Source of the DNA: Candidatus Moanibacter sp.
GTDB lineage: Bacteria; Verrucomicrobiota; Verrucomicrobiia; Opitutales; UBA2987
Assembly: GCA_965215885.1 (NCBI GenBank)
Contig: CBDCEW010000105.1
Coordinates: 320,001 to 384,000 of the forward strand
Length of the DNA: 64,000 nt
Reading direction: 5' to 3'
Position numbers: made by a program. This document shows positions 18,001-33,000 of the stretch, piece by piece. Within the stretch, counting starts at the first letter, position 1; the number at the start of each line of letters is the position of its first letter.

Positions 18001-21000
18001 CCTTGGGGAGCTTGGCCATGAAGAGAGCGTGAAAAGGCATCGCGAGGAGCGGGCCGATGGCGATTCGGCTGATTTGGAAGAATCGATCCTCGGAAACGGA
18101 ATGAAATTGATCGCTCGAGATAGTCAGAATAACCCGTTGAAGTCTGTCTTTGATTGGACGGAAGAGGCGGCGGAGCGCATTCTTCGGGTTCCTGCCGGAT
18201 TCATGCGCGACAGAGTGCAGAAAAAGGTTGAAGACATGGCCCTCGATGAGCGGATTTTTGAGATTGATCTCACTCTCATCGAGAGAGGAATTGCGGCCGG
18301 CCGGCAGATGATGGAAGAGATGCTGAAAACTGCCGGACTCGACCCGAATTCGGCCGGCAATGGAAATGGAAGGGAGGATGTTTCAGCGGTACCGGAGTAT
18401 ACCAGCACCCAGAGAAACGATTTCCCGCCTAATCATCCACCAAAAGAGATGATGAATGAAGAGGGAATCATGTCGGCGCTGGAGAAGAAGCGTTCAGGAA
18501 TGTGATCCGCAGTCCGAAGATTTTGAGGATCTCCGGACAGAAAGAGTGTTACCTAACGCGCTTTCGAATCAGGGTTTGTATCAGAAGAATCCGTCGGTCC
18601 CTAAGTCCGACAGATTCCCAATTTAGGTGCCTGTCGAATTTCGCTCATGGCCTCTTTTCGATTTTGTCGGCCGGATGATATAGAGGAGTTGGTCGATGCA
18701 GTCAACCGGACCTATCTCGTGCATTTTCCGGGTCTGGCTCCTATGACTGTGGAGACTTTCAAGAGGGAGATAAAGGAACTCAACTTGTGGACCAGCTCGT
18801 GTATGCTGGCGACAGAGGATAGTGGACCAGTAGCAGTGCTGATCGCGGCGAAGCGACGGCGCTCCTCAGTCATACTTCGCTTGGGCGTTCATCCCGGATT
18901 CCAGCGATTAGGATACGGCTCTCATCTATTGGATTCTCTGCAGAGTAAGATGCACGTTTTAGGTCCCCCTTTGCTCACTGTAGAACTTGAGGAAAGGGAC
19001 GCCGAAAATTGCAGATTCTTTGAGAAACAAGGCCACCAGAAATTAGGGAGATTTACAGATTTTGAATTGAAGGGGAAACTCGAGCAGCCGGAACTCACTG
19101 AGCTCATAAGTGAGATATACATAGGAGATTTGGAAGACCGCTACCTGTTAGGGGAGGAGGGTGAGGAATTGGATGTAGACGAGGCGCTACCGTGGATTCG
19201 ACAGACGGAAACACTGCGGAACCGAATGGAAGAAATGAGAGGATTTGGTATACCTGATCTGGATGGAATTGCGGCTTATGTGTTTGCAAGGGACGCCTCT
19301 GAAGAGAACAAACGATTTGTTGATGTTTGTGCTCTCGGTTGCCGCGACGGAGAGAAAACGCCTCTATATATGAGCATCCTTCTTCGGTACGTATCGAAGA
19401 CGTTCGAAATGGGCGTCCGCATCCCCCGCCTTTCGGAGCGAGAGATTCCTTACGAAATCTTGGAAGATCTCGGATTTGAAAAGAGGCGAGAGTATATTCA
19501 GTATGGGATGCGGACGCAGTAGTTTGGGGTTAGTTTCTCTATGCCTTCTGGTTTAATCACAACGTCCAACGTCCAATACAAGGCTAGCCCGAACATTTCA
19601 CAAATCTTCTGCTACGACCTCGGATGTCACTGCGTCTCAAAGCCTTCCCTTGTCCGGCGACCTCAGAGGGTTCCAACACGCTGTCGCCCGCCGTGCTGCG
19701 GAAAGGCACTGATACGCAGTCCCGGCGCGCCGGGACAGTCTCACTACGAAGTGTGTGAAATGTCCGGGCTAGGAGAAGACTAACATAAAAGGAGAGAAAA
19801 GATGAGCAAAAAGAAATACAACTTATCCGGATTTTTTTCACCAGCATCCGTACGGCAAAAGAAAATTCCGATGAATAAAGAGTACAGCCACGGGCCTGGT
19901 CACCAGAATGTTGCACTTGGACGTTGGGCGTTGGATGTTGAGCGTTGAATATTCAGATTCGTCCCATTGGGCGGGACTTCGCCAAAAATAAAAACCCGAC
20001 AGTCCCATCGAACTTTCATTGCACAGGTATAGACAAATAGCTCGAGACTGGCTCCTCCCAACGAGCGACGGTCAGTCCTATCATCGCGCTGCTGTGATCT
20101 ATTTCATCTACGGAATGGTGTATATGGGAGGAGCGATTGCGCAGCTTACACCTGAGCGCAAAGTAGACTTCTTCGGAACAGTGCCGTGGTGGACTTTTTA
20201 TATTTTCGGCGCGGTCGTCCTGGTCGGGTTTCCAATTCTGGTTTGGTTCCGCTTCAAATGGTTTACCAGGATAATTGCGTTCGGGCCATCTGCAAAAGCG
20301 ATCACCCTCATCGGCAGGGAAGTGCGATCGTTGATGAAAGGTGAGCCAATGAATCTGTTCTATTGGATCTTCGCTGTCGTTGCGGTTTGGGCCGCGGTGC
20401 ACCTTTTCCGGGCAGGATGGGGTAGGGAAAGGAGGAATGATGAAAGATGATGGGCAAAAGGAAGAATCTGCCGACGGATGGGAATTGCCCGCTAAGCACG
20501 CGAAAAAGCGCGAAATTGGAGGGAGAAGATGAAGGATGAAACGGCCAGGGACCAATCGCGATCAGGCGGATTGGGGGGCGGGTTCCGGCGATCCAGTGTA
20601 TTTCCTGCGCACGAAAAAGATGATGAGGATTTCGGCGAGAAGGGTCAGGAATCCGTAGGTCAACATTGGCCCAATGGGAGATTGGGTATCGGCGGGAGTG
20701 AGGTAGATGCTGTACCAGGGAGTTATCCCCGTTCGAACGCCTGTTTCGCGGTTAAATCCATCCCAAACGAAAAAGGAGAGGGGCAGGAACTCGCCCTCGA
20801 CAAACGGTATTGCATCAGTCTGGTCCCGCCTTTGCTTGAAAATGACGGACCATTCACCGTTTTCGTATTTCGAGGAAACCAAAACACCGTTTGACTCGCT
20901 TGCGATGAGATTCTGAAAACCGTTTCCGGTATACTGCTTTACGGTCTCTCCCTGAGCGAGGTCGACGAACCATACGTTCACAGCATTCTTCGCGTCCCCA

Positions 21001-30000: not shown

Positions 30001-33000
30001 GACGGTATCTTCAGACATTTATGCGATGGAGCGTTTAAGGCAGACAGTTGATTAAATCTCCTTGTGGAGCAGCAAGATTAGAGAGCATCTGAATTTCGGG
30101 AATTTGGCTATGTTCCTGAAATGGGAGCTACTCTCTGGAAAAGGCGAAATTGACGGTCTGTGCCTCGTTGGCTGCCACAGTTACGGTGGCGACCCGAGTA
30201 CCCATCTTTTCGTGCCAGGCTTCCACTTCATAGGTACCGGCCGCGAGTCCGCTGATTTCGAATGATCCATCTTCGCCCGTGACGGAGAAAAACGGGTGTT
30301 CCATAACCGCGGCATACGAGTTCATCCATGGATGTTTGTCGCATTTCACCCGGAACATCGATTCGACCTTCTTGAAGGACCTAGGTTTCGAATTCTTCAT
30401 ACTGCCGGGCATGGCGAGATTGAATTCGCGATTTTTCTTGGGCAGAGCATGGACGTTGTGCAGGACTCCGTCGGAGTTTTTGAACACGATATTCTGCCCT
30501 TTCATCAGTGCGAAAACGTGGGGAGCGTATTTACACCCGATCTGATCGATCACCACAGGGTCCGAGGGCGGTATGTAGCTTGCCGCGCCGTGTCCACTCT
30601 TTACCGAGACAAAAATGTTTCCCAATGAGTTTCCCTCTCCCAGCACGAGCGCCTCGCTCCTGGGTGAGTGCCCTTTCTTTTCCCACCGGCCGACGCAGAC
30701 AGGTTCATCGGACATGTCAATCTCCTTCAACTTGGGAGCATCTCCTTCGAATTTAACGATCCCTGATATCTTGGCCCCGCCGGTCGGAATTGGAATGGCG
30801 CCTTCGGGGGCGGCGCTGGCTGGAGAGGGAGCGGCTCCCGTATCAGCAGTCTCACCACCGCCACCGCAGCCGGCCATAAACAGCAGAATTAACCCAATGA
30901 AGAGGAATGAAGGAAACCGGAAAGTATTAGCAAATCTCATATGCTGTCTCCCAAAGTATAAATAATAGTTTTAATTTAGTCCGCCGCAAAGGAACTGTCT
31001 AGTCGGTGCCGTGTTTGGGTTGGAACCCTTGAGGACGAGAGTAAGTCAACGGGCAGGTATCTATTAGTCGTGATTCGCTTCTGTCAAATTATATTCACGA
31101 AATAAATCAATACCTGTTTCCCGGGCTGGCAACCTGTCGGACTTTGCCGACAGGTTACTAGCAGGAATCTGACGGACCATAAGTCCGATAGATTCCTAGT
31201 AGGTGGGCGCCGCGGCGATACCGGAAAGCGCGATCACGACGCCGACAAGCACGCCGTAAATGATGTGTCCCACGAAATGAGCCAGAGCGACACTGTAGCC
31301 GGCATGACGAAATTCCTCCAGAGGATGCTCCTCGGCAATTGCTACCATGAGGCAAATACTCGTTACAAGACCATGAAGAAAACCGAGACCGAGACCGATA
31401 CCGATTATTAAACCGCCCGATTTTGGGCCACCGGCAATGAAAACGAGGGTGTAGAGCATGGCAAATACGATACCCGATATGGTGTGGAGAATCGCACCCA
31501 CGAGCAGAGCCGAGTCTAGCGATTTCGTAAAGAGGCTGCCTATCGCCACTACCATTCGTGCATTTGTGATGCCGGCCTGCGTGACGATGTGGAGAAAGAC
31601 CGTCATCCCCCCGGTGCCGATAAGGCCCGCCAATGTGGAAAAAACCAGAAAACTGAGTATTTGCGATAACTGGTCCATGCCTGTTGGCTTTTCTAAAGGC
31701 AGCCGGATTATTCTGGTGTAAGCGTCACGAGGCAAGGACGTTTTTCCCGATGTTGTTTTGAGCTCTATTAAACTGACCCTTTTTGCGACCCCGTGGTCGA
31801 CTTCAGAATATGAGAAAATGGGTGTCTCGGAATTTCTTGCAGTGACTGTCGGAGAGGCCTACAAGGGAGCGAACATAGCTCAGTGAGTCGCGTCTCTAAC
31901 CGAGTTTGAGGATCACGAATCATCGCTGATGGATTCAGGACGGTTCTGGTTGATCAGGAGGAATGCACTGGACGGGAAGGGCCCGTCTGTTGAGACGTTC
32001 GGATGATAAGGTGTGTGCAACCGCAATGGGGCCGCTCCGAGAAGCTCGTTGAGCGTCTTCTTCATTGTTGGCATCTATCATGCTAGCGGTTGCCGCTATC
32101 TATTCCAATATTCCATCAGCCGAATAGTGTAGACAACAGATTGTTCAGTTGAGCGCAGTAGGGGCCAAGATACACATATGAGTCCGTTCAGAGAGGACAG
32201 AAAGCCTACCATCCTGGTTGTAGACGACGACCCTTCCGGCCTCTCATTCTTTCGGCTAAGTCTGAAGAGGCTCAATTACCGGGTCTTGACTGCTCAAAGT
32301 GTGAGGGAGGCGCAGTCGAAGATTCGAGGGGAAGGGATTGATAAGATCGACTGTATCCTTACGGATTTCCGAATGCCGATCCAGTCCGGACTGGATTTGT
32401 TGGAATGGGTAATGAGGGAGGATGACAGCCTCTCGACGATAATCGTAACCGCCCAAGGGGAAAAGAACCTGGTGCGCGATTCTCTAAGAGGTGGCGCCAG
32501 TGATTTTCTGGAGAAACCTGTAAATCGAAAGACGCTCGCCGAAGCGGTTTCACGGGGAGTGGTGGAGACGGAACGCAGCCGCCAGTTGCGGGCCACTGAT
32601 GAGGAGGTCAAGGCAGTGGGGAGAATGGAGCAGATATTTCAGGCTGTTCGAGCACCGGAGATCGCCCCCTTCTTGCGGTATTATTCTCGACCCCTTTATG
32701 AAGTTGGAGGCGATTTCATAAATGTGCTGCCAATGGGAGAGAATCGTTGCGTATTTATCATTGGAGACGTCTCAGGACACGATGTAAGAGCAGCATTCGT
32801 ATCCGCCTATTTCCAGGGAATGGTGAGGGGTTTGCTTGAACATGAAGCTTCCCTCGAGGAAATCTTCCACAGTTTTAATAGGACACTGAGCGATGAATGG
32901 GCACCGACGGACGGAAATGATGGAAGCAGTGGTATCAAGATACAGGTATCCCTGGCAGTATGTGCTGGAATGGTTGATCTCAGGAAAAATAGCATATCGT

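Follow-up and report, generated by a model that had tools for sequence, protein, structure and literature searches.

The window, a 64,000-nt stretch of Candidatus Moanibacter sp. (contig CBDCEW010000105.1, positions 320,001-384,000) to whose positions all coordinates refer, carries a block of three units: a bd-like module, a lysine-less A1-type oxidase with a blue-copper lipoprotein, and a radical-SAM/USP/Mrp cassette. The features are as follows.

11436..12389, plus strand: CusF-SCO copper chaperone, heading the cassette in the source genome (PF11604, PF02630)
12861..19522, plus strand: convergent cassette of five genes (profile matches; frequency in related loci)
12861-13790, plus strand: Mrp/ApbC NTPase of the cassette
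14190-14714, plus strand: CxxC-PCP_red protein of the cassette
14767-16113, plus strand: radical SAM/SPASM-PCP_red protein of the cassette
16436-18505, plus strand: USP-USP-PCP_red-rubredoxin-like protein of the cassette
18647-19522, plus strand: GNAT protein of the cassette
20562..22205, minus strand: "Alternative NxrC", with signal peptide, diheme c domain, EbdC/NxrC-like domain and C-terminal helix (PF09459, TIGR03477; 55/55 loci)
22208..23044, minus strand: monoheme cytochrome c with four predicted helices (55/55 loci)
23045..23890, minus strand: membrane-anchored diheme cytochrome c (3' of the bd-like gene in 55/55 loci)
23887..25761, minus strand: bd-like (OR-N, probably OR-N2) protein of ~624 aa with signal peptide (PF01654)
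25762..25996, no strand: gap of 235 nt that separates the bd-like module from the oxidase genes
25997..26788, minus strand: CoxB, CuA subunit II (PF00116)
26785..27066, minus strand: 93-aa protein with signal peptide, CxxC and one helix (comparable ORF in 10/10 related operons read)
27072..27254, minus strand: unannotated 60-aa membrane protein with two helices (comparable ORF in 10/10 related operons read)
27266..27583, minus strand: CoxD, subunit IV, start corrected (PF03626, TIGR02229, alignment)
27601..28200, minus strand: CoxC, subunit III (PF00510)
28207..30018, minus strand: CoxA, A1-type subunit I (alignment to P. denitrificans 1AR1)
30128..30940, minus strand: lipoprotein whose residues H161/C200/H203/M206 form a type-1 (blue) copper motif and whose C-terminal domain is carboxypeptidase-regulatory-like (motif; PF13620)

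The gene order of the preliminary description, ten minus-strand genes, was recovered in this sequence; it is identical in all five genomes that carry the block, among them G002, for which it had been claimed. Adjacent genes of the same half are spaced at -4 to 17 nt; 109 nt separate the first gene from coxA, and 235 nt separate coxB from the bd-like gene. A scan of this last gap for terminators and promoters gave no match, and its folding z-score is -0.63. The oxidase genes and the bd-like module may be co-transcribed across it; none of the contigs listed from RNA libraries (one study; the contigs carry neither strand nor ends) bridges the 235 nt.

By its ligands, the HPEVY motif already reported for CoxA, the D-channel and the CuA subunit, the predicted oxidase is a member of the A1 heme-copper oxygen reductases, from which it departs in the K-channel lysine. 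Aligned to 1AR1, this residue (K354/K362) is replaced by I362, a feature that had been overlooked. The column holds no lysine in any of 120 homologues (Ile in 111, Val in 8, Leu in 1), and lysine in 13/13 canonical oxidases of the same alignment. Nonetheless, CoxA has kept its metal-ligand histidines, Y288, E286 and D-channel intact, and the catalytic and D-channel columns checked are invariant in 120/120 homologues; loss of the lysine and retention of the catalytic residues throughout the family point to a functional enzyme. CoxB has its CuA ligands and retains E78, with a second glutamate, E85, in helix 2 and a CxQxC CuA loop. The second glutamate and CxQxC occur in 16/16 members of the lysine-less clade (window included) and in 0/9 canonical enzymes, and the clade-specific glutamate suggests that the proton channel was rebuilt. 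In G002, G004, G032 and G039 (94-99% complete) this oxidase is the sole A-family match, and each of the four also has genes for heme a synthase, for an ActC-like protein and for another COX1-family protein, which is shorter. Two small membrane genes in the coxD-coxB interval had passed unnoticed; neither the 60-aa nor the 93-aa product has a match in NCBIfam, and the latter is a possible copper-handling partner. The copper motif of the first gene had likewise been overlooked. Its ligand set, His...Cys-x2-His-x2-Met, is of type 1, with the motif pair in 22/26 homologues, and matches to amicyanin and blue-copper proteins are weak (E 0.12-0.28). The lipoprotein could be the electron donor to CuA, and the CusF-SCO chaperone, whose SCO match recurs in only 6/80 related loci, could load that centre.

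The bd-like protein had been given as 606 aa; with a CTG start at 25761, followed by a signal peptide, it reaches ~624 aa, and a 98% identical database protein shares this N-terminus. As previously stated, subunit II is missing: G000 has one bd-like gene, and CydB was found in 0/5 genomes searched. PF01654 spans residues 28-260 and includes the first four helices and the His19 equivalent expected of a CydA homologue. This residue, His37, aligns with His21 of 5DOQ and is His in 117/119 homologues; His198 and Glu124 are kept as well. An AlphaFold2 model (pLDDT 78) has 15 long helices, where at least 12 had been predicted; two form a lineage-specific insertion (8/119 homologues), and the remaining 13 plus the signal peptide agree with the ~14 helices of OR-N. 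CydA is the best structural match (Z 28.8, rmsd 4.0, 352 aligned), followed by ActF (Z 20.6, rmsd 3.8, 320 aligned) and PsrC (Z 14.7, rmsd 4.4, 239 aligned). The first proton-channel glutamate is Tyr117 in 119/119 homologues. The helix-8 glutamate of CydA is a heme ligand, and the alignment with homologues has no acidic residue at its position. CoxB has no heme c motif, and neither, as had been noted, has the bd-like protein, which separates the latter from OR-C; 9/119 homologues carry a CxxCH in an N-terminal extension. Sequence matches to CydA stop before the K252/E257 region of the quinol site, and OR-N is defined by loss of that site. Within the OR-N1/N2 families, as the accessible passages of Murali, Gennis and Hemp (bioRxiv 2021.01.16.426971) delimit them, the protein is probably OR-N2: its solitary occurrence favours N2, and an unanchored quick tree, built without the authors' reference clades, separates a group without Glu124 from the group holding the window protein. 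Reduction of O2 is unproven for any OR-N protein (PMC10839748).

Counts of 2, 1 and 2 CxxCH in the three membrane c-type cytochromes agree with the preliminary description. The gene content of the module, the bd-like gene and these three, is fixed in 55/55 module loci with at least 8 kb of flank. The EbdC/NxrC-like domain of the last cytochrome was previously missed; the protein matches 6H5L_B at E 3e-50 and was also aligned to 7B04_C and 2IVF_C. The domain is without the Met/Lys pair that we take to be the heme b ligands of the reference NxrC-like proteins: the Met position is Phe402 (Met in 2/65 homologues) and the Lys position Thr492 (Arg in 57/65), with a Lys one position earlier in 32/65.

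The earlier suggestion that the module has its own heme supply concerns the cassette. This does travel with the module: within 10 kb 3' of it, across 55 loci, USP was found in 52, Mrp in 39, rSAM in 36, PCP in 35 and GNAT in 26, and the USP protein occurs in 7/7 sampled genomes with the module and 0/143 without; the sampled centre genome G044 has the module and no USP protein. The heme part of the suggestion fares worse. The radical SAM protein scores 297 against TIGR04545 (AhbD), below the cut-off of 500, two homologues score 305 and 312, and HemF and a ferrochelatase homologue lie elsewhere in G000. Among five genomes the HemQ family was found in none and HemF in four, the fifth having HemN over the cut-off. 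Dedicated cofactor maturation fits the cassette better than bulk synthesis of heme b.

As first described, the block is present, with 84-86% identity, in 3/3 genomes of genus g3 and in 0/5 of g2; it is also present in G032 and G039, from two further families. It is patchy (5/40 relatives; 0/250 random genomes of Verrucomicrobiota). The bd-like module, found in at least 557 GTDB loci, is not peculiar to the source lineage. The lysine-less oxidase, its clade set here by identity (68-74%) and not residue by residue, accompanies it in 63/79 other module-bearing genomes, versus 33/150 random Acidobacteriota; the 79 are top-scoring relatives, mostly Acidobacteriota and Rhodothermales, and therefore not independent. 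In at least 27 of the 63 the oxidase lies within 30 kb of the module. Within the random Acidobacteriota it occurs in 6/7 genomes with the module versus 27/143 without. This co-occurrence at the genome level suggests a functional link, and our literature search found no paper on the pairing. Among 61 loci with enough flank, the lysine-less oxidase lies directly 5' of the module in 6; ActA/B(/E) genes lie 5' of it in 28 and canonical caa3 genes in 8. The pairing of an OR-N-type protein and c-type cytochromes with an A-family oxidase is supported, but not the claim of one respiratory super-complex as an obligate unit: the module is absent from 27/33 oxidase-bearing genomes of Acidobacteriota and 9/9 of Verrucomicrobiota. 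Since each occurs without the other, a single super-complex is not shown.

We tentatively favour, at a little under even chances, two separable but functionally linked respiratory branches that share an electron pool, together with a maturation cassette. In the first, the lysine-less aa3 oxidase would receive electrons from the lipid-anchored blue-copper protein via CuA and reduce O2; protons would enter through the D-channel, which is intact, and through a K-channel so remodelled that the place of the lysine is probably taken by E85 of subunit II. The second would be the four-subunit OR-N2/TO_1 module, whose five periplasmic c hemes would feed the hemes of the CydA-fold subunit, most likely for reduction of O2 at low tension without CydB. 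It would draw its electrons from the periplasmic pool that also serves the first branch and that alternative complex III would fill, and the radical-SAM/USP/Mrp/PCP_red cassette would make or install a cofactor for it. Gene content, residues and co-occurrence are established; from them we infer the chemistry throughout, which donors serve the branches, what E85 does and what the cassette acts on. In favour count the module content, which is that of the bd-like_3/TO_1 cluster, the conserved CydA fold and the variable 5' partner. Against it count the unproven O2 reduction by OR-N, Tyr117, the missing helix-8 acid, the non-independent sample, G044, the 90% complete G000 assembly, in which no ActA/C/D/E was found, and the role in reverse electron flow, not O2 reduction, that the available text of PMC6606698 proposes for bd-like_3.

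Considerably less probable is a module that is no oxidase at all but a membrane arm linked to quinone, which would do the work of ActC/ActF or of complex III, its c hemes passing electrons to the blue-copper protein and on to the lysine-less oxidase, or in reverse. Such an arm would explain the usual company of that oxidase. ActF and PsrC are the best structural matches after CydA, ActA/B(/E) genes lie 5' of the module in 28/61 loci, the active-site acids of CydA are partly gone, searches of G000 and its five carriers found no complex III cytochrome b, and the Nitrospira cluster has been proposed to interact with quinone (PMC6606698, as far as accessible). However, an ActC-like protein is already present in all five relatives, a lost quinol site is what defines OR-N, His37 is almost invariant (117/119), and CydA outscores ActF, while a common fold proves no function. 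A bolder version, which we hold to be improbable, makes the OR-N2 "bd-like oxidase" a non-oxidase, CydA-fold, quinone-linked electron-input complex with its own radical-SAM-made cofactor, docking on the lysine-less aa3 oxidase or feeding it via the blue-copper lipoprotein: an undescribed quinol-to-O2 chain in Acidobacteriota, Rhodothermales, Calditrichia and Opitutales.

Equally improbable is the original proposal of a single stable super-complex that unites oxidase and module and is made from one transcript. The oxidase-then-module order holds in 5/5 Opitutales carriers and recurs in Rhodothermales/Bacteroidota loci, in several of which the gap is only ~100-200 nt, signal-peptide coding stretch included. 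Nevertheless, direct adjacency is limited to 6/61 loci, the two units often lie on opposite strands ~14-16 kb apart in Acidobacteriota, most oxidase genomes are without the module, and 0/4 Fibrobacterota module genomes carry the oxidase. A CoxD domain is fused to the front of one homologue, P0039, but this is 1/120 matches, on one short contig, and its CoxD best matches canonical caa3 operons. Less probable still, both units were merely gathered in a transferred respiratory island with no special functional tie: the block is patchy, the window CoxA is 68-74% identical to non-verrucomicrobial homologues versus 61-71% to those of other Verrucomicrobiota, and canonical caa3 genes are also frequent 5' of the module (8/61), but the association holds across phyla despite changes in order, strand and distance. 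We give hardly any credence to a lysine-less enzyme acting mainly as a proton-pumping peroxidase, with the module supplying or removing H2O2: K362M of R. sphaeroides does lose oxidase activity and keep D-channel-only peroxidase activity (PMC7601700, in its accessible text), and the D-channel of the window CoxA is intact, but the second subunit II glutamate speaks for a rebuilt channel, the oxidase often occurs without the module, and lysine-less oxidases of iron oxidisers are regarded in the literature as terminal oxidases.

Nitrite oxidisers are presumed to use OR-N proteins as their terminal oxidases, and this locus family shows an OR-N module in bacteria without NXR. The cassette genes are probably those needed for module maturation, a likely reason why heterologous expression would fail. 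The family includes a named host, Rhodocaloribacter litoris (label of a 66% identical homologue). As a natural K354I enzyme, the neighbouring oxidase allows one to test directly if the K-channel lysine is indispensable or replaceable by a subunit II glutamate. Should the module be a quinone-linked input complex, the cluster that nitrite and manganese oxidisers express highly would be reassigned too.

Among known systems, AhbD heme b synthase and NirJ2 (TIGR04545, TIGR04055) are the best NCBIfam matches of the radical SAM protein, which shares CxxxCxxC and a SPASM domain with them but differs in its scores (297 and 294, versus cut-offs of 500), a C-terminal PCP_red domain common to two neighbours and a host with HemF. 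With CydA (6RX4, 5DOQ) the bd-like protein shares the fold and equivalents of His19, Glu107 and, within one residue, His186; unlike CydA, it has no CydB, a Tyr for Glu99, a non-acidic helix-8 glutamate position, a signal peptide, extra helices and further conserved histidines (His333, 349, 350, 544 and 546). The oxidase resembles canonical A1 aa3 enzymes (P. denitrificans 1AR1, R. sphaeroides 1M56) in metal ligands, cross-link tyrosine, E278, D-channel and CuA, and differs in K354 to Ile, an Ala before HPEVY, Gln for Glu in the CuA loop, the extra subunit II Glu and the putative copper lipoprotein donor. A1 "KC channel" oxidases are catalogued from Elusimicrobia and Methylacidiphilaceae (PMC8239418, supplementary tables); over the six columns compared (Y280/S291/K354/T351/S357/E292) the window reads Y/T/I/S/C/E, which fits this subtype, and the two Elusimicrobia rows read Y/A/I/S/C/E and Y/S/I/S/C/E. 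A bd-like partner, a second glutamate in subunit II and a blue-copper gene are all absent from those tables. Finally, the bd-like_3/alt_NxrC_2 cluster of Nitrospira moscoviensis (PMC6606698) is TO_1 of Ca. Manganitrophus (bioRxiv 2021.11.15.468770), and, going by the available parts of both sources, it shares with our module a CydB-less bd-like protein, a pair of membrane c-type cytochromes and an NxrC-like protein that has a signal peptide, diheme c and a C-terminal helix. The source lineage differs in a single bd-like gene, no NXR-type alpha subunit (0/5 over the cut-off) and an NxrC-like domain without the Met/Lys pair, and, unlike the cluster as described there, its module is tied to a radical-SAM/USP/Mrp cassette and a lysine-less A1 oxidase.

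The bd-like gene of Candidatus Moanibacter lies in an island in which a cytochrome module, an oxidase operon and a convergent cassette adjoin, bracketed by two related membrane genes. The features of the window are as follows.

10441-10908 (-): DUF6789-like four-helix gene
12861-19522 (+): cassette of Mrp, small PCP_red, radical SAM, USP-PCP_red and GNAT genes
20019-20450 (+): 143-aa membrane protein, between cassette and module
20562-25761 (-): module, a bd-like gene and three c-type cytochrome genes, the third NxrC-like
25762-25996: gap
25997-30940 (-): lysine-less oxidase operon coxA/C/D/B, headed by a blue-copper lipoprotein gene
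31196-31735 (-): second DUF6789-like four-helix gene, 60% identical to the first
34284-35453 (-): IS4-family transposase amid a signalling cluster (SpoIIE-type regulator, MurJ, hybrid kinase, adenylate cyclase)
41720-42841 (-): BeeR-family actin-like protein (526.6 bits, cut-off 530)

The preliminary description of the block held up in its order of ten minus-strand genes, its CxxCH counts of 2, 1 and 2 in the three cytochromes, its single bd-like gene in this genome (G000, a 90% complete assembly) and its lack of CydB, which we found in none of five genomes searched. Neither the bd-like protein nor CoxB has a CxxCH motif. Close homologues occur in 5 of 40 relatives, namely G032, G039 and, as had been claimed, all three genomes of the genus g3 (0/5 of g2); within the stretches compared, oxidase, module and convergent cassette come in the same order in all five carriers. 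The bd-like protein, given earlier as 606 aa, had to be extended to about 624 residues, with a CTG start at 25761 and a signal peptide. Two small membrane genes lie between coxD and coxB and have counterparts in 10/10 related operons read. With corrected starts, intergenic spacing inside each half is -4 to 17 nt; it is 109 nt from coxA to the first gene and 235 nt from coxB to the module. A promoter and terminator scan gave fewer matches than shuffles and none within the coxB-module gap, where no unusual folding was seen either. Metatranscriptome contigs (three runs, one study) include oxidase and cassette pieces and few module pieces, none covering 32192-33500, and one of the contigs listed extends out of coxB as far as 25851, inside the gap; as assembled contigs they carry no expression level, strand or transcript ends and do not count as evidence on co-transcription. 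The 143-aa protein is kept at 53-56% in the three g3 genomes and has no NCBIfam match. DUF6789-like homologues also occur close to the bd-like gene elsewhere, in 5 of the best 80 of at least 557 related loci. At ~19580-19780 and ~13900-13970 many unrelated contigs piled up when aligned to the window, suggesting short repeated elements.

Aligned to subunit I of P. denitrificans, the CoxA of the window has Ile362 at the position of K354. None of 120 CoxA homologues carries a lysine there, and their metal ligands, E286, Y288 and the checked D-channel residues are invariant; canonical oxidases in the shared alignment keep the lysine (13/13). CoxB retains E78, adds E85 seven residues on in helix 2 and has a CuA loop of the form CxQxC, the second glutamate and this loop being present in 16/16 members of the lysine-less clade versus 0/9 canonical oxidases. 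The first gene of the operon encodes a type-1 copper ligand set, seen in 22 of 26 homologues. Additionally, G000 has a second, canonical caa3 oxidase with ctaA and ctaB. Four relatives, G002, G004, G032 and G039, have no A-family match other than the lysine-less enzyme, and in them a shorter COX1-family protein, which we infer to be a cbb3 oxidase, is encoded near an ActC-like gene. An ActC-like protein in all five relatives weakened the idea that the module substitutes for a complex III missing from the genome. The NrfD match of G000 belongs to a molybdoenzyme operon (C60:2653-6974; a 931-aa molybdoenzyme and a fused ferredoxin-NrfD subunit), not to alternative complex III (ACIII), whose absence from G000 may be an assembly gap. 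A quick CoxA tree resolved no donor for the Opitutales block. It placed as sister of the window's clade a different lysine-less lineage, found at L138-L142 (G007, G005, G020, G035, G001) in genus g2 and two other Opitutales. This lineage has Met or Leu at K354, directly preceded by Glu; helix 2 of its CoxB contains an Asp, coxC-like genes are present twice, and no bd-like match lies nearby.

The bd-like protein belongs to a family of at least 7628 proteins. Its model (pLDDT 78) has the CydA fold (Z 28.8, rmsd 4.0, 352 aligned); the next-best structural matches are ActF (Z 20.6, rmsd 3.8, 320 aligned) and, behind it, PsrC. His37 corresponds to CydA His19, Glu124 to Glu107 and, within one residue, His198 to His186. 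Unlike CydA, which has Glu99, 119/119 bd-like homologues have Tyr at that position, and no acidic residue stands at the CydA helix-8 glutamate position of the bd-like protein. His333, 349, 350, 544 and 546 are conserved among close homologues, 349 and 544 varying in distant ones. The order of a genome labelled Nitrospirales, searched for references, gave canonical-type CydA matches only. In the NxrC-like domain, Phe and Thr occupy the heme b ligand positions of NxrC and EbdC, and the domain is therefore probably heme-free; an NXR-type alpha subunit scored above cut-off in 0/5 genomes. Placed by its features rather than by an anchored tree, the protein is probably an OR-N2, because OR-N1 and OR-N2 have 14 helices and OR-N2 is frequently solitary, according to the accessible text of Murali et al. 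(bioRxiv 2021.01.16.426971). As far as the available portions of two further papers go, O2 reduction by OR-N proteins is without experimental confirmation (PMC10839748; PMC12342949). One homologue, P0039 (1 of 120 matches listed, on a single 3.4-kb contig), has an oxidase subunit IV domain fused to its N-terminus; as one case only, with a canonical-type CoxD, it was rejected as proof of contact between oxidase and module. Four Fibrobacterota loci (L033, L037, L041, L089) combine the module with extra NxrC-like genes, without the lysine-less oxidase; upstream of it, three also carry NirK-like or NnrS genes, which hints at nitrogen-oxide chemistry in those loci.

As to mechanism we favour, tentatively and at slightly less than an even chance, two branches on one periplasmic electron pool: the copper protein would feed an aa3 oxidase with a rebuilt K-channel, and cytochrome c would feed the bd-like enzyme, working at low O2 and matured by the cassette. 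A somewhat unlikely alternative is that the module forms a quinone-linked input arm delivering electrons to the oxidase. We compared the best 80 of at least 557 GTDB loci of the module, counting neighbours by tblastn. All three cytochromes follow the bd-like gene in 55/55 loci with at least 8 kb downstream. Of the 61 loci with at least 5 kb of upstream flank, 28 carry ActA/B(/E) genes there, 8 carry those of a canonical caa3 oxidase and 6 have a lysine-less oxidase directly adjacent (oxidase clades assigned by identity), while 19 show none of the three. A further 19 loci were left out for shorter flanks, and three of these have a coxB of the lysine-less clade directly upstream.

Less probable still is the stable super-complex of oxidase and module put forward earlier. 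The genes do adjoin in the window. As an obligate unit the complex is not supported: direct adjacency holds in 6 of those 61 loci, the module is missing from 27/33 Acidobacteriota and 9/9 Verrucomicrobiota genomes with the oxidase, and 0/4 Fibrobacterota module genomes have the oxidase. Mere co-location we consider improbable. The oxidase clade is present in 63 of 79 non-Opitutales genomes carrying the module, at most 30 kb away in at least 27 of the 63 (a lower bound, from contig numbering). Among 150 random Acidobacteriota it was found in 6/7 genomes with the module versus 27/143 without. The nominal Fisher p of 5e-4 makes this link look stronger than it is, since related genomes are not independent samples; leaving out G103 and G200, unpublished genomes and two of the six, gives 4/5 and p 0.007. 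The link is one-sided: the module is usually accompanied by the oxidase, the oxidase not usually by the module. A peroxide relay is very improbable.

In the two-branch reading, the cassette would serve the bd-like enzyme. Of 55 loci (again from the best 80 of at least 557), 52 encode the USP-PCP_red protein within 10 kb downstream of the module; for Mrp the number is 39, for the radical SAM protein 36, for the small PCP_red protein 35 and for GNAT 26. Among the random Acidobacteriota, all seven module genomes (G103 and G200 included) and no others encode the USP protein; the 143 that lack it include all 27 with the oxidase only. The centre genome G044 carries the module but not the USP protein. 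The cassette goes with the module. The preliminary description suggested that it might be the block's own heme supply. Against the AhbD profile the radical SAM protein reaches 297 (cut-off 500), and HemF and a ferrochelatase homologue lie on another contig of G000, so bulk heme b supply is an unlikely role; no HemQ-family protein was found in G000. We infer that the cassette makes or inserts a special cofactor for the module. In some Rhodothermales loci, such as L040:16257-18335, the radical SAM gene is separated from the USP gene by three additional conserved genes; for two of them the homologues have no Pfam match, and for the third there is no NCBIfam match.

Each part of the island is already catalogued. 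This analysis adds that the partner oxidase of the module here is of the lysine-less clade, that module and oxidase show a one-sided association at the genome level across phyla, and that the cassette is module-specific. Our literature search found no account of the pairing or the cassette, its scope ending at subscription papers and the supplements of Murali et al., which may list such operons. The lysine-less A-family oxidases described in acidophilic iron oxidisers are A2-type and have also lost E78 (bioRxiv 2020.03.01.968255). The A1 'KC channel' group comprises further lysine-less A-family oxidases, and its Elusimicrobia rows agree with the window at 5/6 columns (PMC8239418). In R. sphaeroides, K362M is described as abolishing oxidase activity while peroxidase activity is kept (PMC7601700). 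The module itself is already known: its content is that of two published clusters, bd-like_3 in N. moscoviensis (PMC6606698) and TO_1 in Ca. Manganitrophus (bioRxiv 2021.11.15.468770). Both have the same four parts, namely a bd-like protein, a pair of membrane cytochromes c and an NxrC-like protein, the last with a signal peptide, a diheme c domain and a helix at its C-terminus.
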